A stretch of 64,000 nt of DNA from a virus. Made by a program: the position numbers and the translations under genes. The notes under the pieces were generated by a model that had not been told where the DNA came from, did no database searches, and saw only the letters and a list, made by a program, of their open reading frames with translations. This document shows positions 9,976 to 50,099 of the stretch, one piece after another. The DNA is taken from the IMG/VR virus record IMGVR_UViG_3300006048_000003. One strand, 5' to 3'. How positions within the stretch are numbered: the first letter of the stretch is position 1; each line of letters begins with the position of its first letter.

Positions 9976-9997
9976 CCAGACACGATCCTTCATCGCC

Positions 9998-10286: not shown

Positions 10287-10314
10287 TCATTCTCCTTTGG
10301 TGGATCGACTGCCG

Positions 10315-10789
10315 GTTGCAACTACTAACCCGTTGCACTGGGATTGTTACGTCTCTTCTGTGTGAGGCACCAACCCAGCGGCTTGTGGTTGCAACTACAA
10401 ACCGGTTGCACTCGGTATGTCACGCCGACGCCGAGCAGTTGGCGGCACTCGAACGCAAGTTGCAACTACAAACCGGTTGCACTGGGATTGTTACCTAGCT
10501 TCGACTTCCGTGCCGCATTCATTGCTTCGCCCCTCGATTGCAACTACTAACCCGTTGCACTGGGATTGTTACGATGCTTGTGCTGCTTGTGGTTGTCCAC
10601 TCGAAGATGTTGCAACTACTAACCCGTTGCACTGGGATTGTTACCGAAATAAAGGTTCGGGAACTCTGCCATAGGCGCCGTTGCAACTACTAACCCGTTG
10701 CACTGGGATTGTTACAGCCGTCGCCAGGTCCGGCGGCACGAGGAGGCCGGTGTGTTGCAACTACTAACCCGTTGCACTGGGATTGTTAC
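10315..10789 (-). CRISPR. CRISPR array: 7 repeats (36 nt), 6 spacers (35-42 nt)
   Basis: Sense consensus GTAACAATCCCAGTGCAACGGGTTAGTAGTTGCAAC. Repeats start (+ coordinates) at 10315, 10388, 10459, 10537, 10609, 10680 and 10754. The most variant copies are leader-distal; the leader/promoter lies between the array and the cas gene. Confidence 0.97.
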
Positions 10790-10793
10790 TGCC

Positions 10794-10822: not shown

Positions 10823-10911
10823 ATTATTCCTGTTCCGCGAGCGGTTCCCAATTTGACCCATGATCCTTCACATTGAACCCCTATCAAGCGGGGGGTCATC
10901 GCCTGGAAATC

Positions 10912-12816
10912 CTAGACGCGAGCGGGTACTTTCGCCCCAGAAGCCCCCAAAGCCCTGTTTAACAAGTTCGTGGCGGCATTCACTGCCCGATCCCTCTTTT
11001 CACCACCACAGGACTCGCAGCGAATCCAGCGGCCCGACTTCGGGTGGTCACACGATTCCCCACACTGACAACACGTCGTCACGATGTTCCTGGCGGACTC
11101 AGTAACTTCGTTCATGTATCTTGTTATCTCGTCCCGGAGTTGGGCACAGGAAGACAGTGCCCGATATCGCTTGTTGACGATATCGTTCCCGTTCTCGACT
11201 TCAGGATTCTCAGCCAACTTGTTCCAGTCAATTTCCGCGATCACCACGTCCTTGTACTGATAGCTCAGGTCAATCGCCACTTTTCGGAAGAAATCCTTCC
11301 GCCAGTTCTTGATCTTGTCCCGCTTGTGTGCCCTCCAGTCGCACAGGTGTTTGCTCTGCAAACGCCCCCCGGTGTACTGATTCCTTCCCGTGGTTGGGTT
11401 GAGTTGGATTCTCCCCCACATTCTTTGGAAGATCTCTTCGTCTCCGGGAATCCGATGATCCTTCCACCACCAAATGAGCCACATGAACCTGTCGGCACTT
11501 CGCCACTGAATCAGAGTCTGGGCACGCTCGGTCCACTCTTCGGGAAGGGGATTCGGGTAGTTCACGAACCAGTCGACCAGTTCAGCCCTTTCAGCTTCAA
11601 ACAAGGTATCCCGAATGGACTGGAGGGTGTCAAGATAGGACCACCCCTCCACCAATTCTTTGGGAATACGGACGGTTCCGGTCACACCATCATCACCAAC
11701 CCACTCGGTAACGCGGATTTCCCCATCAATCAGACGCCAACCCAACGCCACCGCGACAGTCCCTTCCTGTGCCCGATCCTGTCCGGCCGGGTGATACGTC
11801 CACGCATCCCGTGCGATGTCGAACTGAACATCCCACCGGTAATGAGTTCCAATCTTCCTGCGGGACAGGTGAACCCACTTCACTTCACCGTCTTCGGGGA
11901 GAGGACGCGACATGACAGCCGGAATCGACGCCATCACCGGCTTTCCCTTTTCGTCCGACGATACACGAAAGTGGATGACGACGTACTTCGGATGGGGAGC
12001 CGTCAGCGGTGGTTGATACGTCCTTTCGATCCAGCAATTCGTGTTGGGGGTGAAGACATCACAGGTCCGAAGAGATGACCCCCCCACGTGAGCGAACGTT
12101 GGCTTCTTGCTGCGTGGATGGATCTTGGGATTGCCTTTGGAGTCCAAAACTGGCTCCTTCGGGGATGTCTTGTCGGGCTTCCGTTGGAACTGAACCGAGA
12201 TAACTTCCTCCCCCCGCCACGACTTGAACTTCGGGGGTGGGCCGGTTCTCTTTACACGTCCCACCACTTGCAGGGAAGTAGCCCAGTACAACCCACCTTC
12301 CACCGCCGCGTTGCGGGCATCTGCCTTTCGTTGTTCAAACGACTTATCGTTGTCCTTCAGGTCGGCTTTCACCTTCGGGTCGGCAAACGCGGCGTCCCGC
12401 TGATCAGAATAGAACTCCCATGCCTGGGACACCACACGCTTCTGAGCGTTGATTTGCTCCACTAGTTCGGGGTCTGACATCAACTGCCGGTTCTGACTGT
12501 TCGACTGGCTGAGTTCATCCCGAAGCTCCTGGAGGCGTTCCTGCTGCTCCTGGGCTGCGTTGTGGAGGGTCGTCAGAGCCGGAAAGTGTCTGACCAGGAT
12601 TGGGTCGATGGCTTCCCTGCGGGCACGCTCGATTTCTACCAACTTGTTCTGGAACTGGTGAGCGAGCTTCATCTGGGTAACTGCCAGGTCGTGTCCATCG
12701 AACCTCTGACGGAGGGCTTTCGTGCCGTCAGGATTGATTTCACGCGGACCGGAAAGGAACCCCCGGCAACCGTAGTTGTACTTGCGAGTCGGTTTGCTCT
12801 TGTTACCGAATGCCAT
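10912..12816 (-). CDS. cas12m: Cas12m-like (type V-M/V-U1) effector, 634 aa, predicted nuclease-dead
   Basis: N-terminal YNYG...QMKLAHQFQNKLVEIERARR, GLYWAT and PKFKSWRGE...SVQFQ resemble Cas12m. RuvC-I VAVALGWR, RuvC-II VVIAEIDW, RuvC-III DRAVNAATNL, CxxC/CxxC zinc ribbon. Adjacent to the array; SD GGAG before ATG 12816. Confidence 0.85.
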   Translation of the reverse strand: MAFGNKSKPTRKYNYGCRGFLSGPREINPDGTKALRQRFDGHDLAVTQMKLAHQFQNKLVEIERARREAIDPILVRHFPALTTLHNAAQEQQERLQELRDELSQSNSQNRQLMSDPELVEQINAQKRVVSQAWEFYSDQRDAAFADPKVKADLKDNDKSFEQRKADARNAAVEGGLYWATSLQVVGRVKRTGPPPKFKSWRGEEVISVQFQRKPDKTSPKEPVLDSKGNPKIHPRSKKPTFAHVGGSSLRTCDVFTPNTNCWIERTYQPPLTAPHPKYVVIHFRVSSDEKGKPVMASIPAVMSRPLPEDGEVKWVHLSRRKIGTHYRWDVQFDIARDAWTYHPAGQDRAQEGTVAVALGWRLIDGEIRVTEWVGDDGVTGTVRIPKELVEGWSYLDTLQSIRDTLFEAERAELVDWFVNYPNPLPEEWTERAQTLIQWRSADRFMWLIWWWKDHRIPGDEEIFQRMWGRIQLNPTTGRNQYTGGRLQSKHLCDWRAHKRDKIKNWRKDFFRKVAIDLSYQYKDVVIAEIDWNKLAENPEVENGNDIVNKRYRALSSCAQLRDEITRYMNEVTESARNIVTTCCQCGESCDHPKSGRWIRCESCGGEKRDRAVNAATNLLNRALGASGAKVPARV

Positions 12817-12844: not shown

Positions 12845-12880
12845 TTCGCAGCTACCAACCCGCTGCGATGGGAACAGGCA
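12845..12880 (-). repeat. Repeat-like unit in the cas12m 5' UTR
   Basis: Sense TGCCTGTTCCCAT-CGCAGC-GGGTTGGTA-GCTGCG-AA; a perfect alternative 6-bp stem between the -10 element and the SD. Confidence 0.8.
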
Positions 12881-12909
12881 ACCCTAGCATGAGATTCGTT
12901 AAAAGGCAA
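12881..12909 (-). promoter_or_regulatory. Sigma70-like promoter of cas12m
   Basis: TTGCCT-17-TAGGGT with extended TG. Confidence 0.65.
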
Positions 12910-12910
12910 A

Positions 12911-14354: not shown

Positions 14355-14542
14355 TTCGTCTCCGGTTTGGGCTTCTCACGGATCACACGCCAGAATTCCT
14401 TCGCGTTATCCAGTGACATCTTGACGCAATCACAACACATCGGGACGTCGGTGAATGTGCCGTGGATGTAGATATGACTGTCCACAGCATTTTCAGCCAG
14501 TCCCCCACAGCGGTAGCAGTTCTGGATCGGATTAACTTTCAT
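14351..14542 (-). CDS. Small Zn-finger-like protein
   Basis: CYRCG...CCDC; ATGA overlap at 14542. Confidence 0.5.
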   Translation of the reverse strand: MKVNPIQNCYRCGGLAENAVDSHIYIHGTFTDVPMCCDCVKMSLDNAKEFWRVIREKPKPETK

Positions 14543-16551
14543 TTTCGTGCTCCTGTCGCAAGAACGGTGTCTATCAACGAAGGTGCCCGATTGAGTTCCT
14601 GCTCCGACGCTAACTTCTCGTCTATTTCCTTGAGTGGAATCACGGACATTCGGCAGTAGGTATCGTCCACTCCAAGAGAAATGAACAGATTGCTTCCGTG
14701 AACCACAGCCCCACCAGGCCAGCAAACGAACCGCTTCACCACGTTGTCATTGTCTTTGCTGTCTGGCCAAAGCAAAGGAGTTGGTGTCTGTCTCCAGACA
14801 TTGAACGGTGGTTCGGGATTGAATGCCACACAGCCAGCGGAATACACACTGCCTTGCAGACGCTTCCGGCACCCGTGTACAATTGACCACATCTCGTAAC
14901 GCTGTTCCTTCTCACTCCACACTTTGATCGGGGACGCTCCACCTCGAATGACCCCACCTGCCCAGGGCAACTTGTTCGGAGTACGCCACGTCTGGCGGTC
15001 GGACATCACGATCATTTCCGGCTTGTGTGCGTAAACCCAGTGAATTTTCCCGTTGTGCTCCCACGCGACCCAGTTCTTCTCATACTTGTTAGAATTTGGT
15101 GACTCGAATACGAAGGTGTCCTCGATGCTTTTAAGGTCATCTGCGAACCGGACGTATCCGACCTGCACCAGCTTCGGGGGATACCCGTCCGGCAAACTGA
15201 ATGAAGCGTGGAGTCTGCCTTCGTACAGAAACAGTCGGGGGTCTTCGAGTCGGGTGGCCTGAGCGTGTTTCGATGCCAGCGAGGATACAGCCGTCACAGA
15301 CCATTCCCCAAGCCAGTCTTCCTGGGTGTTCTGCAACACCCAAATTCCAGTACGGCTATGACCCCAACTGTCCCGCGTGGCGAGGATCAATTGCCCCCGA
15401 TACTCTGCCACCGAACAATTAAAGTGTCCGTCCGGAACGGGAAGTCGAGTTCTTTCTACGTCAGGTGTCACGAACTGTCGGTATTCACACGTCTCGCAGG
15501 ATCGCACAGGAACGTCGGCTTCCTTGATTTTGGCCCCCACCTTCGTGAAGCAGTGATCTCCGTAACGACCACACTTCGCCAGAGGTATCGTCCTTCCCCC
15601 TTCCAGGACACCGATTTCGTTGCTCCACTCCGACCGGTACATACAGGGAAGTGGGTCCGAATATTGGAGTATCACCTGATCCATCTCCGGGGTGATGTGA
15701 AGAGGATCTTGAATCTCCCGTCCCGTCAGGAGTGCCTGGACGTCCCCGTGGTGCCTGCTCTCCGTGACACCGAGGGGTAACGATGGTTCGCTGCTACTAA
15801 CCCGCTGCGATGGGTCTGGGGCAGTTCGTGTGACATTTCCATCGGAATTAACCCCCGATAGTGGGTTGTCGCTAACGTCGATACAGGATGGTGCCCATTC
15901 CGGTTTCCCGGTGCCTGCGTAGTCGAATGTTCGCTGCGTTACAATGGACGGGAGGACCGCACACCAGTTCAAAAGTCCCTTCTTCAGGACACGTTCCCAG
16001 AGTTGCTGATCCAGGTTCCGGTGTGCCGCCCGCATGTGCTCCAGAAGAACCGGGAGAGCACGTCTGCGGAGCATAATGGCGTGTGTGCCGAAAGGTTCGT
16101 TTAGTCTGCACAGACGCGAATCAGGCAATCCAATGCGTTCCGTCACCTTGTTCCAGCAATTAGGCTGCACTTCTGCGGAGCCGAGAAACACCAGATCCCA
16201 CTCCGGGAAGTCGGAATAGAGTTGGCGTTGGAGCAGTTCCAGTTCAGTGTGGTAGTTCTCAGGGAGGGAGACGTCGTCCTCGAAGATGATGTATTCGTGA
16301 TTGTCGCGATGAACCCACTCCTGACCCGACAACCAGATGTGCTGCCAGAGATTCCACGTCGAAAGGTTGAGAGAGACGTGACCAGACGGCAGGTGCTTTC
16401 CCGGCTCGTATTCGAGTGTGGTGGAAAGTCCCCAAGTACGTCCGTGGCTGGCCTTCCAGTACGTCGCGTCAATCCCCCGCTCTGCAAGGTGTTCCTTGCA
16501 GGCTTGGGTTCGTTCGGGAAGCTCTTCGCAGTGAATCACATAATACTTCAC
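14539..16551 (-). CDS. GT25-like glycosyltransferase fused to a GH130/GH43-like beta-propeller
   Basis: N-terminal YYVIHCEELPER...IIFEDDV; C-terminal FNCSV...LEDPRLF...EKNWV...IRGGASP...CWPGG; GTG start 1 nt after the previous stop. Confidence 0.7.
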   Translation of the reverse strand: MKYYVIHCEELPERTQACKEHLAERGIDATYWKASHGRTWGLSTTLEYEPGKHLPSGHVSLNLSTWNLWQHIWLSGQEWVHRDNHEYIIFEDDVSLPENYHTELELLQRQLYSDFPEWDLVFLGSAEVQPNCWNKVTERIGLPDSRLCRLNEPFGTHAIMLRRRALPVLLEHMRAAHRNLDQQLWERVLKKGLLNWCAVLPSIVTQRTFDYAGTGKPEWAPSCIDVSDNPLSGVNSDGNVTRTAPDPSQRVSSSEPSLPLGVTESRHHGDVQALLTGREIQDPLHITPEMDQVILQYSDPLPCMYRSEWSNEIGVLEGGRTIPLAKCGRYGDHCFTKVGAKIKEADVPVRSCETCEYRQFVTPDVERTRLPVPDGHFNCSVAEYRGQLILATRDSWGHSRTGIWVLQNTQEDWLGEWSVTAVSSLASKHAQATRLEDPRLFLYEGRLHASFSLPDGYPPKLVQVGYVRFADDLKSIEDTFVFESPNSNKYEKNWVAWEHNGKIHWVYAHKPEMIVMSDRQTWRTPNKLPWAGGVIRGGASPIKVWSEKEQRYEMWSIVHGCRKRLQGSVYSAGCVAFNPEPPFNVWRQTPTPLLWPDSKDNDNVVKRFVCWPGGAVVHGSNLFISLGVDDTYCRMSVIPLKEIDEKLASEQELNRAPSLIDTVLATGARK
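15787..15822 (-). repeat. Repeat-like unit embedded in frame in an inter-domain linker
   Basis: Sense GCCCCAGACCCAT-CGCAGC-GGGTTAGTA-GCAGCG-AA; canonical loop; closely resembles 12845-12880. Confidence 0.65.
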
Positions 16552-16552
16552 T

Positions 16553-17419
16553 TCACACCCTCGATGGTCCTGTTGCCGTTCCAATGACCCAATCAAGTGA
16601 ACTCGAATGTCCCGCAGGAACTGCCCGCCCCTCAATGTCTGAAGTGATTGGATCATTGTGTCGAATCGGAGCCGGTCCCGCATCCAGTGTGTCCACACCC
16701 TGACCGCCTGAATTCAATCGCACGTCAACCATCGGCGGCAGGCACTCAAATTCAATCCCTGGCCACACGTCGCAAGTATAGTGATCGAGTTTGCCCTGTA
16801 CGGGAACCATCGGGCGGAAACTATCCCAACCACGCACACGGAAGTACTCAGAATAGGGAAACGGACGAGACTCGAAGAACTCTCGCACGTTCGTGTGCTG
16901 AAGTGCATTCTCCCCAATCGGGAAACCGGAGTGCGTAGTCAGCTTCACCTTCTGAATTGGCTGTGCGGTATCCGGACAGGGGGAAAACAGCCCCTCATGA
17001 CCACAGTCCCGCTTATTTGGATGCCACACCAACTGATCCGCGTGCTTGAGGAAGTCTTCGGCTGAGCAGGTTACGTGCGATATGAAACCACGAGTGAATT
17101 CCCACTTGTTTGGCACCAATAAAACAAATGGACGCATACTCTCCCACAGCTTATCAGTCAACTCCCGCTCGCGGTCACGAAGACCAGGCAATCTCGCCTT
17201 CTCGTCACACACAGAACAGTGAATTACACAGCAACTCGCGTCATCGTGCGATGCTGCGTATTCAATCTTCGCCAACTCTACCTGCACACGAATAAACTCT
17301 GCTCGCTCCGACTGACCATGCTCCTCGTACCAGTCCGCCATCGCCAGACGCACCGAATCCTCATCCGGATTGGTGATGATGGATCGCAGGAGTAGATTAA
17401 AGTCGTTCATATTATTCAA
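16553..17419 (-). CDS. TIGR02996-like domain protein
   Basis: LLRSIITNPDEDSVRLAMADWYEEHGQSERAEFIRVQVELA. Confidence 0.8.
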   Translation of the reverse strand: MNNMNDFNLLLRSIITNPDEDSVRLAMADWYEEHGQSERAEFIRVQVELAKIEYAASHDDASCCVIHCSVCDEKARLPGLRDRERELTDKLWESMRPFVLLVPNKWEFTRGFISHVTCSAEDFLKHADQLVWHPNKRDCGHEGLFSPCPDTAQPIQKVKLTTHSGFPIGENALQHTNVREFFESRPFPYSEYFRVRGWDSFRPMVPVQGKLDHYTCDVWPGIEFECLPPMVDVRLNSGGQGVDTLDAGPAPIRHNDPITSDIEGRAVPAGHSSSLDWVIGTATGPSRV

Positions 17420-17433
17420 CGGCAGTTCGACGG

Positions 17434-17469
17434 ATTACAACTACGAACCCGTTGCACTGGGATGCCGAC
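17434..17469 (-). repeat. Dispersed repeat-like unit
   Basis: Sense GTCGGCATCCCAG-TGCAAC-GGGTTCGTA-GTTGTA-AT; 14 nt before ATG 17419. Confidence 0.85.
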
Positions 17470-17479
17470 TCCATTTCGC

Positions 17480-17515
17480 TTCCCACCTACGAACCCGATG
17501 AGTTGGGTTGACTCT
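17480..17515 (-). repeat. Dispersed repeat-like unit, tandem with 17434-17469
   Basis: Sense AGAGTCAACCCAA-CTCATC-GGGTTCGTA-GGTGGG-AA; all 6 pairs valid with G-U; the TAG stop (17487) lies in the loop. Confidence 0.65.
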
Positions 17516-17738
17516 CCAGAAAATCAATTTCACTGTCGATCCACTTCTGCCCCTCTCCCCGAATCTCGTCAATGTCAAATATGGTAGACCCAATATCCGA
17601 AATGTTAACTTGGAAGTATGTCCTTTCCGGACCACACCAAGAAAACCGGATGTGATGTCCACGATAAGCCATCACCACTTCCGGGGAATGTGGTGCGTTG
17701 GGCATCATCAGTAGCCAATCGTAGAATTCCGACGTCAT
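17487..17738 (-). CDS. Hypothetical protein
   Basis: 83-aa ORF. Confidence 0.55.
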   Translation of the reverse strand: MTSEFYDWLLMMPNAPHSPEVVMAYRGHHIRFSWCGPERTYFQVNISDIGSTIFDIDEIRGEGQKWIDSEIDFLESQPNSSGS

Positions 17739-17953
17739 TTCTGCCCCTCAATGGCGTCTCCGATAGCCCGGCAGATTCCCTTCTTGTGGTTGCATGTGTA
17801 ACGCTTAGCTGAGTCACGAGCGACCTGGGCCGAATTCCTCTGGACCTGCTTCAACGCAGCCAGAATGATTTCCTTCGACATGATGTTTGGGTAGATGTCA
17901 AGAGAAGCCGCTACGTCATTTGCAGCTTTCTGGGCTTGTTCTTCCAGCGTCAC
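17735..17953 (-). CDS. Hypothetical protein
   Basis: GTGA overlap with the upstream stop. Confidence 0.5.
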   Translation of the reverse strand: MTLEEQAQKAANDVAASLDIYPNIMSKEIILAALKQVQRNSAQVARDSAKRYTCNHKKGICRAIGDAIEGQK

Positions 17954-18183
17954 GATTTCTTCTCCCGCTCCGCTATGCAGAGCCGTTGGAGTTGTCTGCC
18001 CAGAACCGTGGTGAGAATGAACTGATACTCCACGACCGTCAGATTGTGTTCCTGAATCCACGGGTTCAGGAACTTCAACAGTTTCTCAGCAGCGGACTCG
18101 ATGGCCCGGTCACGAGGATGGACTGGCTCCACAATCCCCGCCAGATCGACCTGTGGTGCTTGTTTGGTCTGATCGTCTGTCAC
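17950..18183 (-). CDS. Hypothetical protein
   Basis: 77-aa ORF. Confidence 0.55.
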   Translation of the reverse strand: MTDDQTKQAPQVDLAGIVEPVHPRDRAIESAAEKLLKFLNPWIQEHNLTVVEYQFILTTVLGRQLQRLCIAEREKKS

Positions 18184-18566
18184 ATGCCACCATCTTTCAC
18201 GGTAACAGGACGAAGATTGACAGTGGCTTTAATTTTCCCACCACTACTGTTCTGTCGAGCGGTGGCCACCTGCCAGTAGCTGCCTGGACTTGAAGGTAGA
18301 GTCAGATACCCATTACTGGAACAAATCAGAATATCCCCATCCCGAATTATTCCAACAAATTCCGGGTCGATTGCCACCTCACAGTCACTGCCCAGACCGT
18401 AGCAAAGTATCTCTCCATTGATGACGGGACCGGAAATTCCACAACAACGACTGTTCGGATTGCCCAACAAACAGTGTCCGTAACGATGATGATCCAACAT
18501 AACCGCACGTCCCACTGGAATCAGTGGATTAGCAGGGAACCAAGCGTCGTTGGGATTGATAGTCAC
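18180..18566 (-). CDS. Hypothetical protein
   Basis: GTG start re-called downstream of the repeat unit. Confidence 0.5.
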   Translation of the reverse strand: MTINPNDAWFPANPLIPVGRAVMLDHHRYGHCLLGNPNSRCCGISGPVINGEILCYGLGSDCEVAIDPEFVGIIRDGDILICSSNGYLTLPSSPGSYWQVATARQNSSGGKIKATVNLRPVTVKDGGM

Positions 18567-18590
18567 TATGCCATCCGCCCTTTGAGGGAT

Positions 18591-18626
18591 TCCACATCGA
18601 TAAACCGGATGCGTTCGGTTTAGTAG
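18591..18626 (-). repeat. Dispersed repeat-like unit (divergent)
   Basis: Sense CTACTAAACCGAA-CGCATC-CGGTTTATC-GATGTG-GA; contains the TAA stop (18620) of the upstream gene. Confidence 0.6.
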
Positions 18627-19120
18627 TTCATGGATGTCACCCACCACTCAGAGCCAATATGAAATACCGTGTGGTGCCCCAAATCAATCAACCCCAAAAC
18701 GGAAGGACGATACTCTTTGGGGGGTGGAACGTACTCTAATGCAAAGAAACTCACATTGCCTGTATCGGAGGTGATGAGCCACTTTAAGCATTCCGGAGCG
18801 GTATCGTATGGCCACACCCGCTGCACAGTATCGACAGATCCCGGAGGAACGCCACACACTGCCAGGATGTAAGTGAGGGGTATCAGTTCCAAGAAACCTT
18901 TGTTGTCGTCATTCTTGCCAACTGCCCATGGTTCCGTCTTTTCGTGCTCTCCGATCTCTTCCCGTCTCCACAATACAACGGATTCTGGATACTTCCTCAT
19001 CCACTGAGCCAGTTCGGGCTTCTCCTTCTCGTCCAGGAAGTCCGCGAATACACCCTTCGCCACGTGATCGGTGGGGTACAGTGCGATCTGCTGAAGGAAT
19101 TCCAGTTCGTCGTGTTCCAT
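18620..19120 (-). CDS. TIGR02996-like domain protein
   Basis: FLQQIALYPTDHVAKGVFADFLDEK. Confidence 0.7.
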   Translation of the reverse strand: MEHDELEFLQQIALYPTDHVAKGVFADFLDEKEKPELAQWMRKYPESVVLWRREEIGEHEKTEPWAVGKNDDNKGFLELIPLTYILAVCGVPPGSVDTVQRVWPYDTAPECLKWLITSDTGNVSFFALEYVPPPKEYRPSVLGLIDLGHHTVFHIGSEWWVTSMNY

Positions 19121-19124
19121 GTGG

Positions 19125-19667
19125 CTACTTGTCCTTCAGGTCCATTCCGGAATCGTCGTTGGCTTCGATCTCACGTTCCCGCGTGGCTTCCTCAATCCTC
19201 CGCATCGCCTCATCGAAGAACTCACGAACAATCGGGGAGACTGGAACCACTCGCCCTTGATCGTCCAAATGAACCATTTGTCCTGCCTGGATATCCGATC
19301 CGGCGGTGTATTGCTGTGTACCCCACACACCCACTGTGGTCTGCGTTTTCGGTTGCTTGTCTGCCTTATCCAACTGAGCGGCAAGACGCATCAGTGAGGC
19401 GTTCATGTCGAATACATCGAACCACAACCAATAAAGCAGGTTCATCTGAAGAACTTTCCACGCATCCCCATAAGAATCAGGAGAAAAAGCGTTCGTCAAC
19501 GCGATATTCAGTGTCCCCGTCAGTCGGCACGCATCTTCATGACGATCCTGAATCTTCAGTTCGTCCAGCAGAGCACCGACGACCGAGAAGTCACGCTCGA
19601 AGATGAGCTTCTCAGCCATCAGACCGATATTCGTGGCAGCGGCACGGGGAATGTCAGGAAGTTTCAT
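19125..19667 (-). CDS. Hypothetical protein
   Basis: Start re-called at MKLPDIP. Confidence 0.55.
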   Translation of the reverse strand: MKLPDIPRAAATNIGLMAEKLIFERDFSVVGALLDELKIQDRHEDACRLTGTLNIALTNAFSPDSYGDAWKVLQMNLLYWLWFDVFDMNASLMRLAAQLDKADKQPKTQTTVGVWGTQQYTAGSDIQAGQMVHLDDQGRVVPVSPIVREFFDEAMRRIEEATREREIEANDDSGMDLKDK

Positions 19668-19694
19668 TTTTAGACCTGTAGACGGTTTCTGTTG

Positions 19695-19730
19695 GTTGCA
19701 ACTACAAACGCGTCGCACTGGGATTATTCC
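19695..19730 (-). repeat. Dispersed repeat-like unit
   Basis: Sense GGAATAATCCCAG-TGCGAC-GCGTTTGTA-GTTGCA-AC; contains the TAA stop (19724); 27 nt before ATG 19667. Confidence 0.85.
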
Positions 19731-19936
19731 CACTCTGTCGGAAGTTCGCCTTCCACCAATTCGTATCCATTCGCGACCTGACGGCGTATGAAATCCAGAA
19801 CGACCCCACGATCCGGATTAGAGTAAAAACACGTCACCGTCAGGGTGCGTTTCTCCCCATCCTGGTTGTGCCCAACGAGCTTCCACCTCTCGCAGATTCC
19901 GATCTTCACCAAGATCCACGTCATCAGTATGAGCAC
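19724..19936 (-). CDS. Hypothetical protein
   Basis: Short ORF after the promoter at 19969-19997; start uncertain. Confidence 0.45.
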   Translation of the reverse strand: MLILMTWILVKIGICERWKLVGHNQDGEKRTLTVTCFYSNPDRGVVLDFIRRQVANGYELVEGELPTEWE

Positions 19937-19968
19937 AAAACACCCCGTTGCATTCGGATTACTGCGAA

Positions 19969-19997
19969 ACTCTAGCACGCAATCCGTGGAAAGGCAA
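19969..19997 (-). promoter_or_regulatory. Sigma70-like promoter
   Basis: TTGCCT-17-TAGAGT with extended TG. Confidence 0.6.
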
Positions 19998-20009
19998 ATC
20001 GGGACGGGA

Positions 20010-21710
20010 TTATCTTCTGGCGTGAGTCCTTCCGTTCAAGTACGGATAGGGGGAATCGGTGAAGTCGTCACTATGTCCACCGACAACTGAAGGCAAATCG
20101 TGGCTGATTTCGTGGTAGCACACCAACATCGCATCGGCATCGTCGGGGCTTCTCCCCAAGCGTTCCTTGATTTTCTTCTTGATCTCCACCTGATACGCTT
20201 TGTTGGGCAGAATCTCGTAACTCGGTGTCAGGAGTTGGAGTTTCAATTTCTTCAGGACGTCCTGAGGCAGATCCGACAGGTCCATTTCGCTCTCCATCGC
20301 CTTCTTCTTGGCTTCAAACCAAATCTGTGCCCTTTTGTTGTCGTACACGTAAGCTCCAGTCGAGTCCATGATGAGGGAATTCTCCGCGACGTTCAATCCA
20401 ATCCAGTCCCCAAAGCCATTGCAGTGAGACATCACCCCATATCCAGGTCCATCAAGCTCCACAATGACCCTCACTTGTGACGCCTGAAGACGTGGACGGG
20501 TGGGAATTGCGGCCCATGAGTTGTACTTCTCAGCCCACAATTCGGACAAGTCCTTGAGACGTTGTGCCGTCTTCTCCGGACCCCACCCGTTGTGGGATTC
20601 ATGGTGGAGGCTCTTCCTACCTGATCTAACGTGCATACTAGTATCATCATCTCCGAACAAAGCAACGTCACAGCCAATTGTGATTCCCCACTTCTGCCAC
20701 CAGCAGTGCTCGTGAGTGTACTTCGGTGTGATGGCTCGTAACCACGCCAGTTCGCTCCAAACGGTGTCCACGCCTTCCGTGGGGCGGATACCCTGCACAC
20801 GAGCTTTGAACATGGGTCCGGGTCTGTGAAACTTGCCGGATTGAGGTGGCCATTCGATGTCGGTGGGAAGTCGATCTTCTTCACTGACCGGATCAGACCA
20901 TTCCTTCACCCAGCCGTCGACCATCGCGAGCGTGACGGCGTTGGGAATAATCGGCTCTTGTCCTGCCAGTTGAGCCTTGATATTCGGGTGATCGAGTGCT
21001 GAAATATTGTGAACTTTCCACTTGGGGTTGCCGTCCGGACCTTCTGCCAAGTCCTCAAGGTAGCTCTGGGAAGCTGTCGTGATGGGATTCCCAATCGCGA
21101 ACCATCCGTGATCGCTGTCGGGCTGGTACATCGTGTTCGTCGTGATCCAATAAACCGAGTCGATCCCCTCGGACTCGTCAAATATGAACAACATGCAAGA
21201 ACGGTGCTTACCCTGAGACGCTTCTCCGCTGCCCTGTGTGCGTCCCTTGATCCAGTGATCGTCGTAATCGAACAAGTCGGCTGCTTTGGGTGCCAACTTG
21301 CCCACATAAGGAATCTTGGCTTTGTTGAGGAGCATCCGGACTTCTGACCAGAGAACCGTTTCGACGTGATCCTTCGTAGGAGCGGTAATGACAACAACAC
21401 CAGGATTTCGTGTGTAGTACCACCATACGGCCAACACCGCAGCCAAAAAACTCTTACCTAACGAGTGACCAGAATTGACTTTGATTCGTCCTGGGAACTT
21501 CCGAATGATTGTTTCTTGATCTTCCGTAAGAGTAACGTCGAGAACTTCCTTCGCGAACCTGACTGGGTCATGAACATACTTCACCATCTCGTCCTTTTGT
21601 GAGACGGATGGGTCGGGGCGGCAAGCGTGTTCCAGTTGCTTTGCAGTGTACTTGCTCTTCAGTCCTGCCGCCAGAGCCTTCAGCTTGTCCAGGTCGATGG
21701 GAAGGGCCAC
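20010..21710 (-). CDS. terL: Terminase large subunit
   Basis: Walker A SGHSLGKS, Walker B FIFDESE, nuclease IGCDVALFGDDDT...SPDDADA. Confidence 0.9.
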   Translation of the reverse strand: MALPIDLDKLKALAAGLKSKYTAKQLEHACRPDPSVSQKDEMVKYVHDPVRFAKEVLDVTLTEDQETIIRKFPGRIKVNSGHSLGKSFLAAVLAVWWYYTRNPGVVVITAPTKDHVETVLWSEVRMLLNKAKIPYVGKLAPKAADLFDYDDHWIKGRTQGSGEASQGKHRSCMLFIFDESEGIDSVYWITTNTMYQPDSDHGWFAIGNPITTASQSYLEDLAEGPDGNPKWKVHNISALDHPNIKAQLAGQEPIIPNAVTLAMVDGWVKEWSDPVSEEDRLPTDIEWPPQSGKFHRPGPMFKARVQGIRPTEGVDTVWSELAWLRAITPKYTHEHCWWQKWGITIGCDVALFGDDDTSMHVRSGRKSLHHESHNGWGPEKTAQRLKDLSELWAEKYNSWAAIPTRPRLQASQVRVIVELDGPGYGVMSHCNGFGDWIGLNVAENSLIMDSTGAYVYDNKRAQIWFEAKKKAMESEMDLSDLPQDVLKKLKLQLLTPSYEILPNKAYQVEIKKKIKERLGRSPDDADAMLVCYHEISHDLPSVVGGHSDDFTDSPYPYLNGRTHARR

Positions 21711-21713
21711 GAA

Positions 21714-24700
21714 TCACCCCGTTTGGCCCTGCTGACGATTTGCCATGAACGATTGATGGAAAGCGGCTTCCATTCCCTTGTAAGTTGGCCAGGAGTATTG
21801 CATCCCTATGAATCTTGGAACGTGATCTGGAGCAGTGTAAAAATCACCGTCTCGGTGGGACTGGCGATATTGTGGTAAATGCTCTGGATCAACACCACTT
21901 GGCAAAGATCCGGAATAGATTCGATGGGGGAATTGCTGTGCATCGGCATTCTTGAGAGACAAATACTGCTGCGGATCGTACATGCCATGATTCTGTGAGT
22001 GCCAATCCCCCATCGCCTGTCGGAAGTCGGCTTCGTCGTGGTGTCCCTGTTCCCGCAAGAAGTCTGAATACACGTAATGCCCCATCGGATCGAGGGGATT
22101 GCCCCCTAGTTCAGGATAGATACTGGCCTGGAACGCTGCGTGAGGATCGGTCCACTGCTCCTGGGAGGAATCGTCGTCAGCGTACAGGGATAGATGTTCC
22201 TCACCTGTGTCTTCACTCAACCGGGGGGCTGGTGCGGGGGCAACCGGTGGTGTCTGACTCAACTCATTGGCGTTCCGATGGGCTTCTTCCTGGCTGTGTC
22301 CCATCCATCGGGACGGCATCCGAAGGGAGATTCCCCCATCCTGCGGATGGAACTTCCACACGTCGTATCTGTGAGGATTAGGATTCTCAGGAAATCCTTC
22401 CCCTTCCGTTACAAAATAGTGCCCACCAATTCCACTATGGACGGGTCCGTGTGGGATGTGTTCCCCGGAACCCTCTACCCCAAACGAGGGGAAGAACCCG
22501 TAGTGCTTCGATGGGTGTCCCCCATAAGCTGCTGTCCACCCATACTCTTCCCCGTTCGCCTTCCGGATGTCATCAAAGGTCGGAATCGCTCCGGCATGGA
22601 CTTCTCCGGTCTGTGGATGATGGGCTACCCACGCATCTCCAGGATGATTCCGCAGGAAGTGGAGTGTGTCCGGACTGACGGAATTGGGGTCTTTTTCTTC
22701 TAGCCAATCGGCGTACACTCCCCGTGCCACGGTATCGTTCGGATGCTCCTGAATAGCATGATGGAAGGCTTCGTGGGAGTAATCCGTTCGGGCGTACATC
22801 GAATACCGCTGGTCCCCGTCCTGCTCCATGACCGGGGACAGATTCGGATAGTTATTCAAGTGTGTTCGGGACTGTGATACCCAATCGGCGATGTCGTCCC
22901 GTTCCTGCCACTCCTGCTGGGGTGGCGAGTAGTCGTAATTCACGGATTCCTGATACGCCTCCGGGTAGTATCGCTGTCCCTCGAACGGCTTATCCTTGCC
23001 CCGGAAGTCACTGTGGTCCTCGTGGAGTGTGCCGCCCCCACTACTCCAGGCGGTATCGGAGTACTGGGCAGCTTGCGTTTGCTGGGATTGACCAAGAAGC
23101 TCGGCCTGACGTTCGGGGTGAAGTCTGGCGAATCCCAACGCGGCGGCATCATCGGCGGCTCGACGGCTTTCGTGGTGCGTCCAGTATTCTCGGTCCTGTG
23201 CGTTTGCATAAGAAGGATTCGTGCTTTCCATCGCATCTAACCAGTCGCGTGGAAGGGCATTGGAGACGTTTGGGTAATGGGAATTCTCGTCATGTCCCCA
23301 ATCCCACGATTCTGGGTAAGGCTGGCCATCATACCCCTCTGCTTTGGGATTCCAATGAGTTGCGTAACGACGATGCATTCCCAACGCCCGGTATCCCGCC
23401 GCTCGTGGGTCATTCTGATCCTCCAGATAATCCGCTAAGATCATTCGCGTCTGGTGGTCGTGGGGGGTCTCGTCCAACATCCGGTGGAAATCCTCCTCGG
23501 ACGTCATGTAATCCATCCGACTGTACCGAGCAGCTTGTGTTGGTTCGTCCTGAGTGGGCTGGACTTCGTAGGAGCCATGAATCATTCCATCGCTGCCAAC
23601 GTAAAGGTCATGCTCGCCGTGCTTCTCAGCAGCGTCCTGAAGATCGTACCCATGATCCCCGTAGACTTCTGGCTTCTCCCAAAACCCCGCACCATGCCCG
23701 TTTCGTGACACCCAGAAGTCGTGTGCGTGATCACTACTCCCACTACTGGTATCCGCCAATTTCTCCTGATTTGTGGCTCTGAAGTGACGGAAGTCTGCCA
23801 GCATCGCAGCCATTGTTGCTGGGTGAATGTTGTGGTAAGTGTGATTTTCGTCTAATGGCTCCCCAGCGTCTGGGTCGGTGGAGGACCATAACGCCGTGTC
23901 CATGTACTGCTGAAATCCTGGTTCCAAGTGATCAGGGCGAATCATATACCCCTGAATATTCGGACGGTACTGACGATGAAGTTGCTGAGACAGAGCGTGA
24001 GCATCCTGAATACCACCATCCGGGTCGAGATAAGCATGTTTCCGTGTATCTCTCAGAATCGCTGCTTGTCGGGCATAGTCCTGATTCCCCGTGTCGGCGT
24101 GCAAGTCATCCAGATAATCAGCCGCTACCAGTCGGGGCGTCATGTCGAAGTGGGGTGATTGTTCGTGTTGCCATCCCCTCCAGGCTCGGGGACTGATGGA
24201 GGAGAGCATCGCAGGGAGTTCTTGCTCGGAAACGTAATCGGTTCGACTGTACCGACTCATCATCTGGGGCTGGAAATCAGGCTGTGACGGTAAGTGCGGC
24301 TCCATGTAAGCGTGAATCGCCTGCCGCATCGGTTCGGGAAGATCTTGGGTCAGGTGGGCCAGGTGTTCCTTCGAGTCTACAGGAACGTGGTATTGGAGAT
24401 ACCCCCCATTACCAAATCGGAGGGGATTACCATGAGGGGCGTGGGTGACTGTCAAAGCACCACTCCGTGCCCCAGTATCATAATATTTCTTGGAAATGTG
24501 AGGGGTAAGCCCAATCTGCTGATGGGGAGTCGGTCCGTGTGGACCGGGGGTTCCATCCTCCACCACGCTCGGAAGTTGGATGGAGTAGTCGTAAGGGAAC
24601 CACAGCCCAGGATAAAAAGGTGGACGCATCTGCTCCGGATCACGGGAATGCCAGTACGCTTGCCGTGCCAGATGTGCCCCCGGCATTCCCTGTTCCTCAA

Positions 24701-27614
24701 GGAAATCCGCGAATGGTCCCAGTCCCGATGCATCGTTCTGGGACACGATTCCATGCATCATCGCGTCGTGAGTATCAGGATCGCCGGATTGAACGTAGTG
24801 CGTTCCCATGTGCTCGTCGTAGGACTCCGTGACGTCCGTATCCCCGAAGTCGTAATTCGTCCTTCCGTAACGCGAGAAGTTCACATCCTCACTGACTTCC
24901 CGCTGTTCCAACCCAGAAGCCTGCTGGGGAACGGGTGGATGTGTCTGGGACAGTTGATGTGCTGTCTGGTGAGCCTGCTGTGCCGCTTTCTCAGGGAATT
25001 CTCCCACATTCCCATGAACACCTGCTTCGTGGGATATCCCCCCTGTGTCGGGATGGAACTGCCAGACGTCGTGAGCTTCCTCCCCGTCATGACCCTCGAA
25101 ATCGTCACGGGACGTGAAGTAGACGCCCCCAGGACCACTATGGGGTTCCCCGTGGGAGGTGTGACGCTCACCCTGATTGTTGACCCACCCGTAGTGCTCG
25201 TTGGGGAACATCTCGTTGAAGTGGGACGTCTCCCCGTTGGCTTTACGGATGTCGTCCCAGGTGTAGTGCGGACCTGCCTTTACTTCCCCCGTCTGCGGGT
25301 GTGTCGAAATCCAGGCGTTTCCTTGATGGGTTCTCAGGAAGTTCAGTGTGTCCGGGTGGACGGTATGAGGAGCGTAGTCCTCCAACCAATCAGCATAGAT
25401 CTGCCTATTTACTGCGTCATGAGGAGCTTCCTGGGCACGTGCCTGAAACGCCTGGTGGGAGTAGTCAGTACGGGAATACGGGGTTTTGTTCCTCCAATAG
25501 TCCCTATCGGGGTGTTCCCCACCTGAAAACCCTCCTGCGGAATCCCCGGTATCGTCGTAATTCGACTGCTCATCTTCGTCCTCGTTGTACCACCTGTCGT
25601 GGTTTGGGGAATCCTGTCCATCCCCACCCGCTCCAGAGCCACTGAATCCGTACATGGAGCCGTCTGCGTCGTCGTACCGGGCGTTCTGTTCGGGTGGTGT
25701 CTGGGACTCCAGGTATTCGGCTGAATTCAACAGACGAGCACGCAGGGTCGGGGACACCTTCGGATGATCTGCCCATTCTCGAAGGGATGGGGCATCCATG
25801 ACAGCAGTGTGGGACGGAAAGGACAGACTTCCGCCCGTTCTTCGGTGAACCAGGGCACTTCCGGGAACGTCAGTGGACCGGATAGTCCATGTCTGGTCCC
25901 CATCACGAACAACTGTGCTTGGTTCCCCTGCCAATTGTGCCTTGTGGGAAATGCCCTGCTTGTTGTGAACAAGCGGAGAACCTGATTCGACCAAGTTCCG
26001 GTAAAAGGGAGCGTGGGGTTCCCCGGCTTCATCCAGTGCATCTGCCAAGACCCCCCCGGCTGTGGTGTCCTGAACGTAGTTGTGGTTGTACTCGTCAGCC
26101 CACTGTCTTTGACTGTTCTCAACCCCCTGACGAATGGTTTCCCCTAAATCGAGGGTGTACATCGTCCCTGTGTGGCCACCAGATTGCGTAGGAACGTCAC
26201 TGTGGGGCGAAAGGGGGTCCGGATGGCCAAAGTGTGCGTAGAGGTGCGAAACTTCGTCTGGAGTCATTGCAGCACTGTAAGACGGCTCATCATTCTCCGT
26301 AGGGGTCCAATTAACGGCATGAACGACAGGTCGGGCTTCTGCGTCTGATGCCCACTTCTGACTCGCGGGATACCAGCCACCCGTCAACTGCAACGTACCG
26401 CCATCCCCCGTTGGAACGACACGTCGAGATGTGCCGTCGTGTGGATGCCACCGATGATCAACCGGACCACCCGCAAGCTGTTCCGCATGGCGATGCAAAT
26501 TCCCCAACCATCCATTGCCCACCCCATGATGACTCGGATTGTCTGCGGAACTCCGATACGACACATCCCTGTCCACAATCGTGGCTCGTGGATCGTCGTG
26601 GTCGGCTAACTTACCCACCAAGACATGATCCACGTAGGCATTCGGGTCCATGCTCCCGGCTCCGGGTGCGGAGTTCAGAATTTCATGGATTTCATTGATA
26701 GGAGCCGCGTAGTCGGTTGGGTCTCCATCGGCATACCGTGAAAACTGTCGTCCTGCCTGAGCTTGCTTGGGGAACCCTGCCGGGGATACCCAGGGAGAAC
26801 CGAACTGTTCCAGGCTTTGAGTTGATCCGGGGGCGATACTTCCGGGGATTGTGGGTGGGGGAAGTCTCATGTCGGTGAAGGACGGGTAGCCGAAGGAATC
26901 GTCGTCGTAACGGCTTAATTGCTGGGGTTCTTCATGATCCTCTGGCAAGTTTGGGTCGGCGTGGTAAACATGCTCGATGGTCTTCTGTCGAACGTGCTCA
27001 GGAAGATCGGCTAGCATCTCGTTCAGATGGCGGTGGGACAGCACAGGGACACGGTAATCAATTCCGATTTCCTGTGGGGCAGAATAGGAGTTATGATAGA
27101 TACGTAGATATGAGCCAGTTCGAGGTTCCTTCACAGGAACCTCCCTTTTTACAGCCTGAATACTCGCAAATCCCGGAACATCGTGTCGGTGAACAGGATC
27201 GATATAGACATTCGCTTCCCCATTACTGTCCCTTATGGAATCGACGTCCTCAGTATGATACAGCCTTTGGAACCCATTCGGACGATACTTGGCTCCTTCC
27301 GCCATCAACAAACCCCCTGGCTGTCCGTACTGCTGAAGATGGTCCGCCAACATCGCCAGGGGAGTACCTTCATGTTCATCCGCTGTCAGAACTGCATTGT
27401 GTAGCTCATCGTGAACCTGCCGGAATTCATCATCGTAATTCGTCGGTTCATTGGAATACTGAGCGTAACAGTCGTAGCTTTGGAACTCCGGATTCGGATA
27501 CACGTTGCAACTACTAACCCGTTGCACTGGGATAGGCATAAACTCCTGCAACCCCTTCAGGAAAATGTGAAGGGCGTCCTGAACCTGCTGGAGGGCTTCG
27601 TATTCCGGATTCAC
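21714..27614 (-). CDS. 1966-aa modular (polyvalent-like) protein with about 9 TIGR02996-like modules
   Basis: Recurrent xADxLxExG motifs, two clearly paralogous internal modules, recurrent [SA]RY[DSAG] linker motif; lies between terS and terL. Confidence 0.75.
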   Translation of the reverse strand: MNPEYEALQQVQDALHIFLKGLQEFMPIPVQRVSSCNVYPNPEFQSYDCYAQYSNEPTNYDDEFRQVHDELHNAVLTADEHEGTPLAMLADHLQQYGQPGGLLMAEGAKYRPNGFQRLYHTEDVDSIRDSNGEANVYIDPVHRHDVPGFASIQAVKREVPVKEPRTGSYLRIYHNSYSAPQEIGIDYRVPVLSHRHLNEMLADLPEHVRQKTIEHVYHADPNLPEDHEEPQQLSRYDDDSFGYPSFTDMRLPPPTIPGSIAPGSTQSLEQFGSPWVSPAGFPKQAQAGRQFSRYADGDPTDYAAPINEIHEILNSAPGAGSMDPNAYVDHVLVGKLADHDDPRATIVDRDVSYRSSADNPSHHGVGNGWLGNLHRHAEQLAGGPVDHRWHPHDGTSRRVVPTGDGGTLQLTGGWYPASQKWASDAEARPVVHAVNWTPTENDEPSYSAAMTPDEVSHLYAHFGHPDPLSPHSDVPTQSGGHTGTMYTLDLGETIRQGVENSQRQWADEYNHNYVQDTTAGGVLADALDEAGEPHAPFYRNLVESGSPLVHNKQGISHKAQLAGEPSTVVRDGDQTWTIRSTDVPGSALVHRRTGGSLSFPSHTAVMDAPSLREWADHPKVSPTLRARLLNSAEYLESQTPPEQNARYDDADGSMYGFSGSGAGGDGQDSPNHDRWYNEDEDEQSNYDDTGDSAGGFSGGEHPDRDYWRNKTPYSRTDYSHQAFQARAQEAPHDAVNRQIYADWLEDYAPHTVHPDTLNFLRTHQGNAWISTHPQTGEVKAGPHYTWDDIRKANGETSHFNEMFPNEHYGWVNNQGERHTSHGEPHSGPGGVYFTSRDDFEGHDGEEAHDVWQFHPDTGGISHEAGVHGNVGEFPEKAAQQAHQTAHQLSQTHPPVPQQASGLEQREVSEDVNFSRYGRTNYDFGDTDVTESYDEHMGTHYVQSGDPDTHDAMMHGIVSQNDASGLGPFADFLEEQGMPGAHLARQAYWHSRDPEQMRPPFYPGLWFPYDYSIQLPSVVEDGTPGPHGPTPHQQIGLTPHISKKYYDTGARSGALTVTHAPHGNPLRFGNGGYLQYHVPVDSKEHLAHLTQDLPEPMRQAIHAYMEPHLPSQPDFQPQMMSRYSRTDYVSEQELPAMLSSISPRAWRGWQHEQSPHFDMTPRLVAADYLDDLHADTGNQDYARQAAILRDTRKHAYLDPDGGIQDAHALSQQLHRQYRPNIQGYMIRPDHLEPGFQQYMDTALWSSTDPDAGEPLDENHTYHNIHPATMAAMLADFRHFRATNQEKLADTSSGSSDHAHDFWVSRNGHGAGFWEKPEVYGDHGYDLQDAAEKHGEHDLYVGSDGMIHGSYEVQPTQDEPTQAARYSRMDYMTSEEDFHRMLDETPHDHQTRMILADYLEDQNDPRAAGYRALGMHRRYATHWNPKAEGYDGQPYPESWDWGHDENSHYPNVSNALPRDWLDAMESTNPSYANAQDREYWTHHESRRAADDAAALGFARLHPERQAELLGQSQQTQAAQYSDTAWSSGGGTLHEDHSDFRGKDKPFEGQRYYPEAYQESVNYDYSPPQQEWQERDDIADWVSQSRTHLNNYPNLSPVMEQDGDQRYSMYARTDYSHEAFHHAIQEHPNDTVARGVYADWLEEKDPNSVSPDTLHFLRNHPGDAWVAHHPQTGEVHAGAIPTFDDIRKANGEEYGWTAAYGGHPSKHYGFFPSFGVEGSGEHIPHGPVHSGIGGHYFVTEGEGFPENPNPHRYDVWKFHPQDGGISLRMPSRWMGHSQEEAHRNANELSQTPPVAPAPAPRLSEDTGEEHLSLYADDDSSQEQWTDPHAAFQASIYPELGGNPLDPMGHYVYSDFLREQGHHDEADFRQAMGDWHSQNHGMYDPQQYLSLKNADAQQFPHRIYSGSLPSGVDPEHLPQYRQSHRDGDFYTAPDHVPRFIGMQYSWPTYKGMEAAFHQSFMANRQQGQTG
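27504..27539 (-). repeat. Repeat-like unit in frame near the N-terminus of the 1966-aa ORF
   Basis: Sense ATGCCTATCCCAG-TGCAAC-GGGTTAGTA-GTTGCA-AC encodes MPIPVQRVSSCN; preceded by GGAG. Confidence 0.9.
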
Positions 27615-48953: not shown

Positions 48954-50099
48954 TTAAACGGAACCGTATTTTTTTCTTTTCTTGGCTCCGGGTTGAGGAG
49001 TCTTGCCCCTCCCATTCAGGAAATGCCCCCACTTGCCCGCGTAGGGACCACGAGTCACCTTCTTCTTCCAGACGTACAAGCCATACACCATCCGCAGTCG
49101 GGTGGGGACGTGGTTGTTGACGGTGTGGGTCAGGGACTTCTCAGTCTTCTTCGGAAACTTGAGTCCCAGAAGCCTGACAAGCTGTGCCTTCGTGACGCAG
49201 GAATCCTTCTGCCCTGCCTCTTTCAGAATACGAACGATTTCGTAGGCCACCCCTTTGGTCGGTACAGGGAGGGGGCTGGCGTCGTAGTGAGCCACCATCT
49301 CATCCCAGGTCATGTCCTTGTTGCCGACACGGTAGACACCCTTCTTCCGCTTCTTCGCCTTCAGTGGTTTGCGGCGGACGTACTTCCGCTTCGGTTTGGG
49401 CTGTGGGGGTGGGATGAGAAGTTCCGGCTCTGTGCAGGTGCCTGAGAACAGTTCATTGATCTCGTCATCGAATTCTGTCTCGATTTCCTCGATGACACGA
49501 TCGACCTCTTCATCGGGGGCTTCAATCACGGAAACCGCTGGATCACGGTTAATATTCAAATTCGTATCCAGCAGTCCTTCCACCCCACTCGCCCGTTCTT
49601 CGCTCCTATCAACCGGGAGCAATCGGTCTGATTCAACCGTCCCTGAAAGAGGAGGAGTCTCCACGACATTCGACCCGTCGTGGTGGGTTTGAAGAGGAGT
49701 TGGTTCCAGTGGAGTGTCCCCCTCCTCCAAAAGATCGGGGATGCCATTCACGACACTGTCACCACTTTCCAAAGCAACGTGATCTTCCGAACCATCGGAA
49801 TTCACCAGAACAACTTCCACAGTCGCCGGGGGAGCTTGGGATTCCCGAACTTCTGGCTCGACGTCGTCAACCACTTCCACCGTCCCTCCTCCAAATTGAT
49901 GAGCGTAAATCTTATCGTAAAGGTCCAAATCGTCCTGGGACGACTTCAAGGACTCCACCTGTTCCGGTGATTCCAGGAACTTGGTAATTCCCGTTCCCTC
50001 GTTCACGCGAACGGACAGCTTGCCCACTGGCCACGATCCTGCGTCGGGGACTCCGATGGTTCCCAGAAGTTTCACCAGTTCTGAACGAGATACCAACAT
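48954..50099 (-). CDS. Hypothetical acidic protein with basic, winged-helix-like C-terminus
   Basis: Start re-called at MLVSRSE. Confidence 0.55.
   Translation of the reverse strand: MLVSRSELVKLLGTIGVPDAGSWPVGKLSVRVNEGTGITKFLESPEQVESLKSSQDDLDLYDKIYAHQFGGGTVEVVDDVEPEVRESQAPPATVEVVLVNSDGSEDHVALESGDSVVNGIPDLLEEGDTPLEPTPLQTHHDGSNVVETPPLSGTVESDRLLPVDRSEERASGVEGLLDTNLNINRDPAVSVIEAPDEEVDRVIEEIETEFDDEINELFSGTCTEPELLIPPPQPKPKRKYVRRKPLKAKKRKKGVYRVGNKDMTWDEMVAHYDASPLPVPTKGVAYEIVRILKEAGQKDSCVTKAQLVRLLGLKFPKKTEKSLTHTVNNHVPTRLRMVYGLYVWKKKVTRGPYAGKWGHFLNGRGKTPQPGAKKRKKYGSV

Follow-up and report, generated by a model that had tools for sequence, protein, structure and literature searches.

The 64,000-nucleotide (nt) stretch of the viral record IMGVR_UViG_3300006048_000003 analysed here (the window) belongs to a phage whose genome, of about 104 kb, comes from metagenomes of rhizosphere soil, and it encodes a homolog of the non-cutting CRISPR protein Cas12m next to an array of CRISPR repeats. 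It contains 31 hairpin units, solitary, paired or in the array, which copy the 36-nt repeat of the phage's own Cas12m array, and five of them are embedded in frame in three open reading frames (ORFs; Table 1). These five embedded units are true members of a dispersed family of look-alikes of the Cas12m CRISPR RNA (crRNA) scaffold and lie inside real protein-coding genes. Our explanation, held with moderate confidence, is that they entered genes that were already present and that the phage Cas12m most likely binds them on the mRNA. Units are named here by their first coordinate. A first-pass annotation of the window had pointed to two of them: unit 27504, in frame near the N-terminus of a gene for a protein of 1966 amino acids (aa) and with a GGAG just upstream of an ATG, and unit 15787, in frame in the linker between a glycosyltransferase and a propeller domain. 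Both are as it described them, in sequence as well as in translation, and judged by their sequences neither is a chance match. Its description of the units as dual-coding elements is also borne out, because the ORFs are real and continuous with coding-like flanks and four of the five units keep the stem and pseudoknot of a Cas12m handle. In the phase used by units 27504 and 15787 the array repeat translates to VTIPVQRVSSCN.

The structure of the units was derived from an alignment of 29 of them in mRNA sense (A3). The covariance model R1 recovers all 29 aligned units and two more, 18591-18626 and 15838-15873. The aligned units share a stem of 7 base pairs (bp), formed by columns 19-25 and 35-41, and a pseudoknot of 3 bp, formed by columns 15-17 and 26-28. 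Pairing is found in 91% of the cells compared to 76% in shuffles, 40 cells have double-sided changes, and none of 500 shuffles reaches the observed values; in slid controls only 25-48% of the cells pair. In the sense (mRNA) orientation G.U pairs outnumber A.C pairs by 16 to 4. Positions -8 to -3 form the 3' arm of the stem, which is closed by a G.A at -2 (pair 19-41 is G.A in 11 units). The unit geometry therefore matches the Cas12m2 scaffold, whose stem ends at -3 with a non-canonical G.A at -2 (PMC10442227). The repeats of GoCas12m fold into a triplex and a pseudoknot (PMC11013384). Rfam does not contain a family matching the units.

Concerning their placement, the 24 units outside the array are distributed very unevenly. 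Seventeen are non-coding although 86% of the window is coding (P = 2e-10 for random placement), two (9599 and 9998) overlap the 3' ends of ORFs, and five are embedded. Typically, a unit is found 10-35 nt upstream of a start codon, and tandem pairs outside the genes discussed here are spaced by 46-61 nt. The embedded units are all sense-oriented and use the two stop-free phases, none the phase that contains a stop. There is no antisense unit in the window, though two of the three antisense phases are also open, and the only unit on the plus strand (2701-2736) precedes a plus-strand ORF. Stem and pseudoknot are intact in units 27504, 15838, 49599 and 49660, the exception being unit 15787. Judged by codon log-odds, the sequence on either side of the units is coding-like in all three ORFs, whereas that of the units themselves is non-coding-like. 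A slippery heptamer of the type XXXYYYZ, which would be expected 5-9 nt before the pseudoknot, is missing within 30 nt upstream of all five embedded units, which rules out programmed -1 frameshifting at these sites. The 18 nt downstream of each unit have no second match in the window at up to three mismatches, and units as guides against other sites in the window are ruled out because no matching sequence exists. Two further features of the non-embedded units were observed. At units 9599-9634, 9998-10033 and 17480-17515 the TAG of the loop is the stop codon of the upstream ORF, as is likewise seen with GTAG ends of bacterial REP elements. Unit 18591-18626, which is of the CCG/CGG type and was found by the covariance model alone (18.6 bits), directly follows the TAA stop of ORF 18620-19120.

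The history of the embedded units is best seen in the fused glycosyltransferase-propeller gene. This ORF was called as 14539-16698, but all homologs begin at about query residue 50 and the true start is thus GTG 16551 and not 16698. The first-pass annotation had allowed that the copy at 15787, having one mismatch in its stem, could be there by chance. The mismatch is real (A.A at pair 23-37), but the R1 score of the unit (Table 1) and its 26 of 28 identical positions with the unit at 12845 in the 5' untranslated region (UTR) of cas12m speak against chance. In addition, the unit has a partner in the same orientation 51 nt upstream, the usual tandem spacing. In this unit, 15838, one of the seven stem pairs is a G.U and the pseudoknot pairs CCC with GGG; the two units together comprise 87 nt or 29 codons. 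Fused homologs and many single-domain relatives were found among 1.8 billion representative proteins, the stand-alone proteins being more distant than the fused ones. One fused homolog (P0006, 673 aa) matches query residues 52-718 in a single stretch, and the cluster members include further full-length fused forms of 635-679 aa, some of them encoded on contigs of about 104 kb. In an alignment of six fused homologs (A2, 45-49% identity) both domains and the Cys-rich segment are conserved. The linker is hypervariable and, with 76 aa here and 30-54 aa in the homologs, is longer by 22-46 aa; 29 aa are contributed by the pair. At the position where the unit encodes DPSQRVSSSEP the linker of P0006 reads PPAEHVNTRSP, which, judged from the protein sequence, may or may not derive from an eroded unit. 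None of eleven metagenome loci encoding relatives contains a unit, and none was found in the DNA of the three scannable loci among the six fused homologs. A syntenic locus (L004, 22 kb of a 101-kb phage contig) encodes a 566-aa protein, a TIGR02996 protein, the fusion gene and then the portal, and in the 22 kb examined the region from the fusion gene to the portal contains neither a cas12m nor an array.

Given six fused homologs and related loci free of units, the fusion is older than the units and the pair entered an existing linker. Very probably, this happened after the lineage had acquired cas12m and the array. For the other two ORFs the same order of insertion is suggested more weakly. 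At the level of sequence, the glycosyltransferase-propeller gene thus contains an in-frame insertion of a dispersed hairpin family, and its homologs are without it. An AlphaFold model of the 719-aa ORF (mean predicted local distance difference test, pLDDT, of 49) has residues 257-421 as a coil of low confidence that separates two folded domains. After the pair there is a single in-frame ATG, directly abutted by a GGAG, and the conserved sequence already begins upstream of this ATG. Independent expression of the propeller was considered and rejected because there is no usable start, and the change in domain stoichiometry that the first-pass annotation had proposed is therefore unlikely.

Both the 27504 and the 15787 sites are covered and kept in contigs of about 88-95% identity from two further soil samples (X6 and X7), and these contigs often break at units. 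Among the differences listed for 15644-15943, 13 are shared by both relatives, with ten in 15760-15786, one at 15874, and none within the pair (15787-15873). The chance of finding none in the 87 nt is about 0.01 by our own calculation. These listed differences are suggestive of conservation of the linker pair in the relatives. The condition under which the first-pass annotation would have given up its reading, a hairpin not conserved in homologs, applies to the distant homologs, which lack it, but not to these close relatives, in which it is present. In X7 there is also a 1-nt deletion at 15770, 17 nt downstream of unit 15787 and inside the patch of ten substitutions, which could be a frameshift in this relative or an alignment artefact of the hypervariable linker.

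Unit 27504 is the best-scoring solitary unit, and over the 28 nt of its core it does not differ from the array consensus at any position. Its ORF has three conceivable starts. GTG 27614 overlaps the stop of terS as GTGA and has a GGAG at -12, while the well-determined starts of the window have spacings of -9 to -14. ATG 27539 has the GGAG only 3 nt before it, and GTG 27503, in frame and directly after the unit, lacks a Shine-Dalgarno-like motif. The 25 codons upstream of the unit outscore 96% of the windows from real genes and every off-frame window. Coding-like usage is likewise seen in the 20 codons following the unit, but not within it. The coding-like 25 codons together with the GGAG at -12 favour GTG 27614, which is probably the start; translation from GTG 27503 is doubtful, and that from ATG 27539 still less likely. 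Unit 27504 is thus probably translated. There is no promoter-like site in 27300-27800. The N-terminal part of the 1966-aa protein has no match in the phages collection, and scans of viral contigs with the proteins P0001 and P0005 gave no match either. In BLASTP the N-terminus has no significant match to the L004 homolog; an apparent NP[ED]F match was dropped.

A second embedded pair, which is absent from the list of the first-pass annotation, is located in a 381-aa ORF. The two units occupy the same acidic linker, one in each of the two open phases. No homologs of this ORF (48954-50099) were found at near or shorter lengths.

Table 1. Coordinates of the embedded units, of the ORFs containing them, and of the cas12m locus in the window. 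Scores are those of covariance model R1.
Feature	Position	Strand	Remarks
cas12m (634 aa)	10912..12816	-	Cas12m homolog, PDB 23vw_A, E 1.3e-43; presumably reads the units
Array of seven 36-nt repeats	10315..10790	-	downstream of cas12m; source consensus of the units
Fused ORF: GT25-like glycosyltransferase, 76-aa linker, Cys-rich segment, GH130/DUF377-like beta-propeller	14539..16551	-	start GTG 16551
Handle unit 15787, inter-domain linker, peptide APDPSQRVSSSE	15787..15822	-	39.5 bits, E 5.6e-9; pseudoknot pairs intact
Partner unit 15838, same frame, peptide SDNPLSGVNSDG	15838..15873	-	16.2 bits, E 0.018
1966-aa repeat-rich protein, TIGR02996 modules	21714..27614	-	start favoured 27614; alternatives 27539, 27503
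Handle unit 27504, codons 26-37 in the called 1966-aa ORF, peptide MPIPVQRVSSCN	27504..27539	-	47.9 bits, E 2.4e-11
25 codons from GTG 27614 to the unit	27540..27614	-	strongly coding-like codon usage
381-aa ORF: N-terminal domain, long acidic linker holding the pair, basic C-terminal domain	48954..50099	-	
Handle unit 49599, CCG/CGG type, in frame, acidic linker, peptide ESDRLLPVDRSE	49599..49634	-	35.5 bits
Handle unit 49660, in frame, same linker, other open phase, perfect 7-bp stem	49660..49695	-	31.7 bits

The segments hosting the units are an N-terminal extension and two inter-domain linkers; for the linker of the glycosyltransferase-propeller gene the structural model has low confidence. 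We infer that units survived insertion where they were harmless, which would be as sense-oriented copies that use either of the stop-free phases, leave the frame intact, and lie in poorly conserved segments. The encoded peptides would then be tolerated by-products. On the mRNA each unit is expected to fold into a 6-7-bp stem and a 3-bp pseudoknot like the array repeat. Because such a message presents a crRNA-repeat scaffold, the phage Cas12m most likely binds to it. Known Cas12m cuts its own pre-crRNA inside the repeat and does not need RuvC for this (PMC11013384), and the phage enzyme may in the same way also cut just 5' of the scaffold. Binding or cutting within an ORF would stall or sever the message and lower the amount of full-length protein once Cas12m accumulates. 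It is plausible, but put forward here tentatively, that the mRNAs with embedded units are bound or cut by Cas12m, as roadblocks or cut sites of the kind considered in the first-pass annotation, and that the output of these genes drops accordingly.

Several observations weigh against the explanation that we favour. The central A.A mismatch of unit 15787 is as expected of a decaying passenger. Minimum-free-energy folds of the short unit sequences are no better than those of shuffles, and the AlphaFold model of the linker gene is weak overall. The conservation of the linker pair is a weak point as well, being judged from the differences listed. The only homolog of the 1966-aa protein with a conserved N-terminus (P0005, 2281 aa, 50% identity) has been called from a Met that aligns to query residue 58, and its start after the unit makes translation of the unit-bearing extension less certain. 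A search for RNA runs containing this phage found none. Lastly, there are no dispersed units in the 13.8 kb of the one other viral contig with the same repeat (L012, described below).

Some of these points suit a serious, though rather unlikely, rival explanation, according to which the embedded units are neutral passengers. The family would have spread, a few copies would have landed in tolerant parts of genes, and the binding by Cas12m would be incidental. This agrees with the location of all five units in poorly conserved segments (one modelled linker is of low confidence), with the non-coding-like codon usage within the units, and with the mismatched stem of unit 15787. In addition, in-frame insertions of REP and Rickettsia palindromic elements (RPEs) are known and are thought to be free of functional constraint (PMC3733652). 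It is harder to reconcile with the perfect stems and pseudoknot pairs kept in four of the five units, with the identity of unit 27504 to the array core, and with the sense orientation of all units in spite of two open antisense phases. Also, the linker pair has not acquired a single substitution common to the two relatives, among the differences listed, directly beside a patch with ten. For unit 27504 alone it could be, with somewhat lower probability still, that it is an ordinary 5' UTR unit. Translation would start at GTG 27503 after the handle, and the start region would be in the guide position as at other genes. The in-frame GTG, the location of most units 10-35 nt upstream of starts, and the beginning of P0005 past the unit would fit. 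However, a Shine-Dalgarno-like motif is missing before 27503, while GTG 27614 has both the GGAG at -12 and the GTGA overlap with the terS stop, and the 25 upstream codons with their exceptional score would have to be non-coding.

The remaining alternatives have much lower probabilities. The first-pass annotation had also considered the embedded units as fossils, that is as former spacers between genes that were fused by loss of a stop. Tandem pairs are otherwise typical of gene junctions, and the loops of some units provide the TAG stops of upstream ORFs. However, the glycosyltransferase-propeller fusion is common to all six homologs, the stand-alone single-domain relatives are more distant, and the examinable relatives have no units and, in the 22 kb of L004, no cas12m. 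For the 15787/15838 pair this contradicts fossil junctions, which are the least probable explanation of all; the 381-aa ORF, having no homologs, speaks neither for nor against them. Hardly better is the chance that the units are RNA anti-CRISPR decoys that resemble the repeat of a type V-M system in the host and titrate its Cas12m. Many copies are present in the genome, and viral solitary repeat units can inhibit CRISPR-Cas (PMC10651486), but the phage encodes the matching Cas12m itself, the repeat core has no match in 185,579 species-representative genomes (the host may be unsampled), and decoys would not need to be located inside ORFs or beside ribosome-binding sites. Finally, each handle with the following 17-20 nt of gene sequence might constitute a Cas12m guide pairing with the template strand of its own gene, which we regard as improbable as well. 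With the repeat end at the position of the protospacer-adjacent motif, as in CRISPR arrays, the copy in the phage itself would be spared, while a superinfecting relative without the insertion would be exposed and silenced by a non-cutting Cas12m. The in-frame copies would then be the price of having guides in conserved, essential genes.

As members of a Cas12m handle family, the embedded units resemble the type V-M handles of MmCas12m2, GoCas12m and MsCas12m (PMC10442227, PMC11013384). Shared with these are the 36-nt repeat beside cas12m, the 6-7-bp stem with a 3' arm ending 2 nt before the guide, the G.A closing pair, the pseudoknot pairing, and the sense-strand RNA signature. Sequence identity to the cas12m-adjacent array repeat was found as well, being complete in the core of unit 27504. 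In contrast to known handles, the units are solitary or paired, lie inside ORFs and are translated (unit 27504 probably), their loop is 1 nt longer, and each embedded unit is followed not by an acquired spacer but by the gene's own ORF. Viral solitary repeat units or Racr (Camara-Wilpert et al. 2023, PMC10651486) are also CRISPR-repeat mimics that are carried singly in phage genomes and transcribed. The Racr candidates are intergenic, downstream of a promoter, and without cas genes, whereas the phage here has its own effector in the same genome, five units are intragenic, and there is no promoter-like site around unit 27504.

A further comparison is offered by the Rickettsia RPEs and the intragenic REPs (Ogata et al. 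2002; Claverie & Ogata 2003, as cited in PMC3733652). These families are hairpin repeats located in frame in functional genes, with REP ends donating TAG stops and with G.T pairing suggesting a role as RNA, all of which has its parallel here. Where such links are known, however, these families are associated with RAYT transposases of bacterial chromosomes, whereas the element here is the CRISPR handle of a phage. Pfam scans of 40 ORFs of the window did not reveal any Y1/HUH transposase, and the units do not have a terminal GTAG or CGTC tag. CRISPR-derived regulatory RNAs (tracr-L, scaRNA, crlRNA; bioRxiv 10.1101/2024.12.27.630466) are comparable in that an RNA derived from a repeat enables a Cas effector to regulate genes instead of destroying invaders. 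However, these RNAs carry a partial guide for a promoter elsewhere, whereas the 18 nt after the units here match nothing else in the window.

The repeat core was found in one contig of IMG/VR (L012), where a cas12m of 51% identity is flanked by two arrays with the same repeat (8437-12128). The upstream array consists of degenerate repeats with covarying stems, and the RuvC-II position is a Glu in the L012 Cas12m compared to an Ala in the protein of the window. Since L012 shows no dispersed units in 13.8 kb, dispersal is not required by the system and is rather a feature of the lineage. In the phages collection the sole match to Cas12m is a Cas12m-like protein with 25% identity.

Nearly all genes of the window are encoded on the minus strand. 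They include a Mu-type portal, the small terminase subunit, a PDDEXK nuclease, a RecA/UvsX-like protein, gp32, a clamp-loader subunit, a split family A DNA polymerase, ThyX, and dCTP deaminase. The ThyX gene (40701-42770) contains an intein-like LAGLIDADG insert. The C-terminal stretch of the portal ORF (6233-9433) matches the Pfam family ATLF, a lethal-factor-like metalloprotease fold (E 1.5e-7), and the large ORF next to it (2992-4839) has a PI3/PI4-kinase-like motif; TIGR02996-type modules are present in both. The portal homolog of L004 (L004:13017-16166) has an insert of about 300 aa that is not found in the portal of the window. A tRNA-Arg (TCT) is encoded on the minus strand at 48724-48798. 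In addition, a promoter-like minus-strand motif, TTGCCT-17 nt-TAGGGT, recurs at 12879-12912, 19967-20000 and 55381-55414 and also at 42652 and 48928, and the one at 12880 is directly upstream of a handle unit.

In-frame hairpin repeats, as in Rickettsia and the REP families, and solitary CRISPR repeats of phages have been known separately, and here they are combined. What is new is that a phage with its own CRISPR effector has the RNA handle of this effector in its protein-coding sequence. Surveys of solitary repeats that mask ORFs would have missed this whole class; the survey of PMC10651486 masked them and took intragenic matches as probable false positives. The embedded units are one facet of a larger system of dispersed handles in this phage, and their added value is moderate in this respect. 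However, the dated insertion, a young insert in an old fusion gene, constrains how the family of units spreads. If it is true that Cas12m acts on the messages, a DNA-binding CRISPR protein would also be an intragenic regulator of mRNAs.

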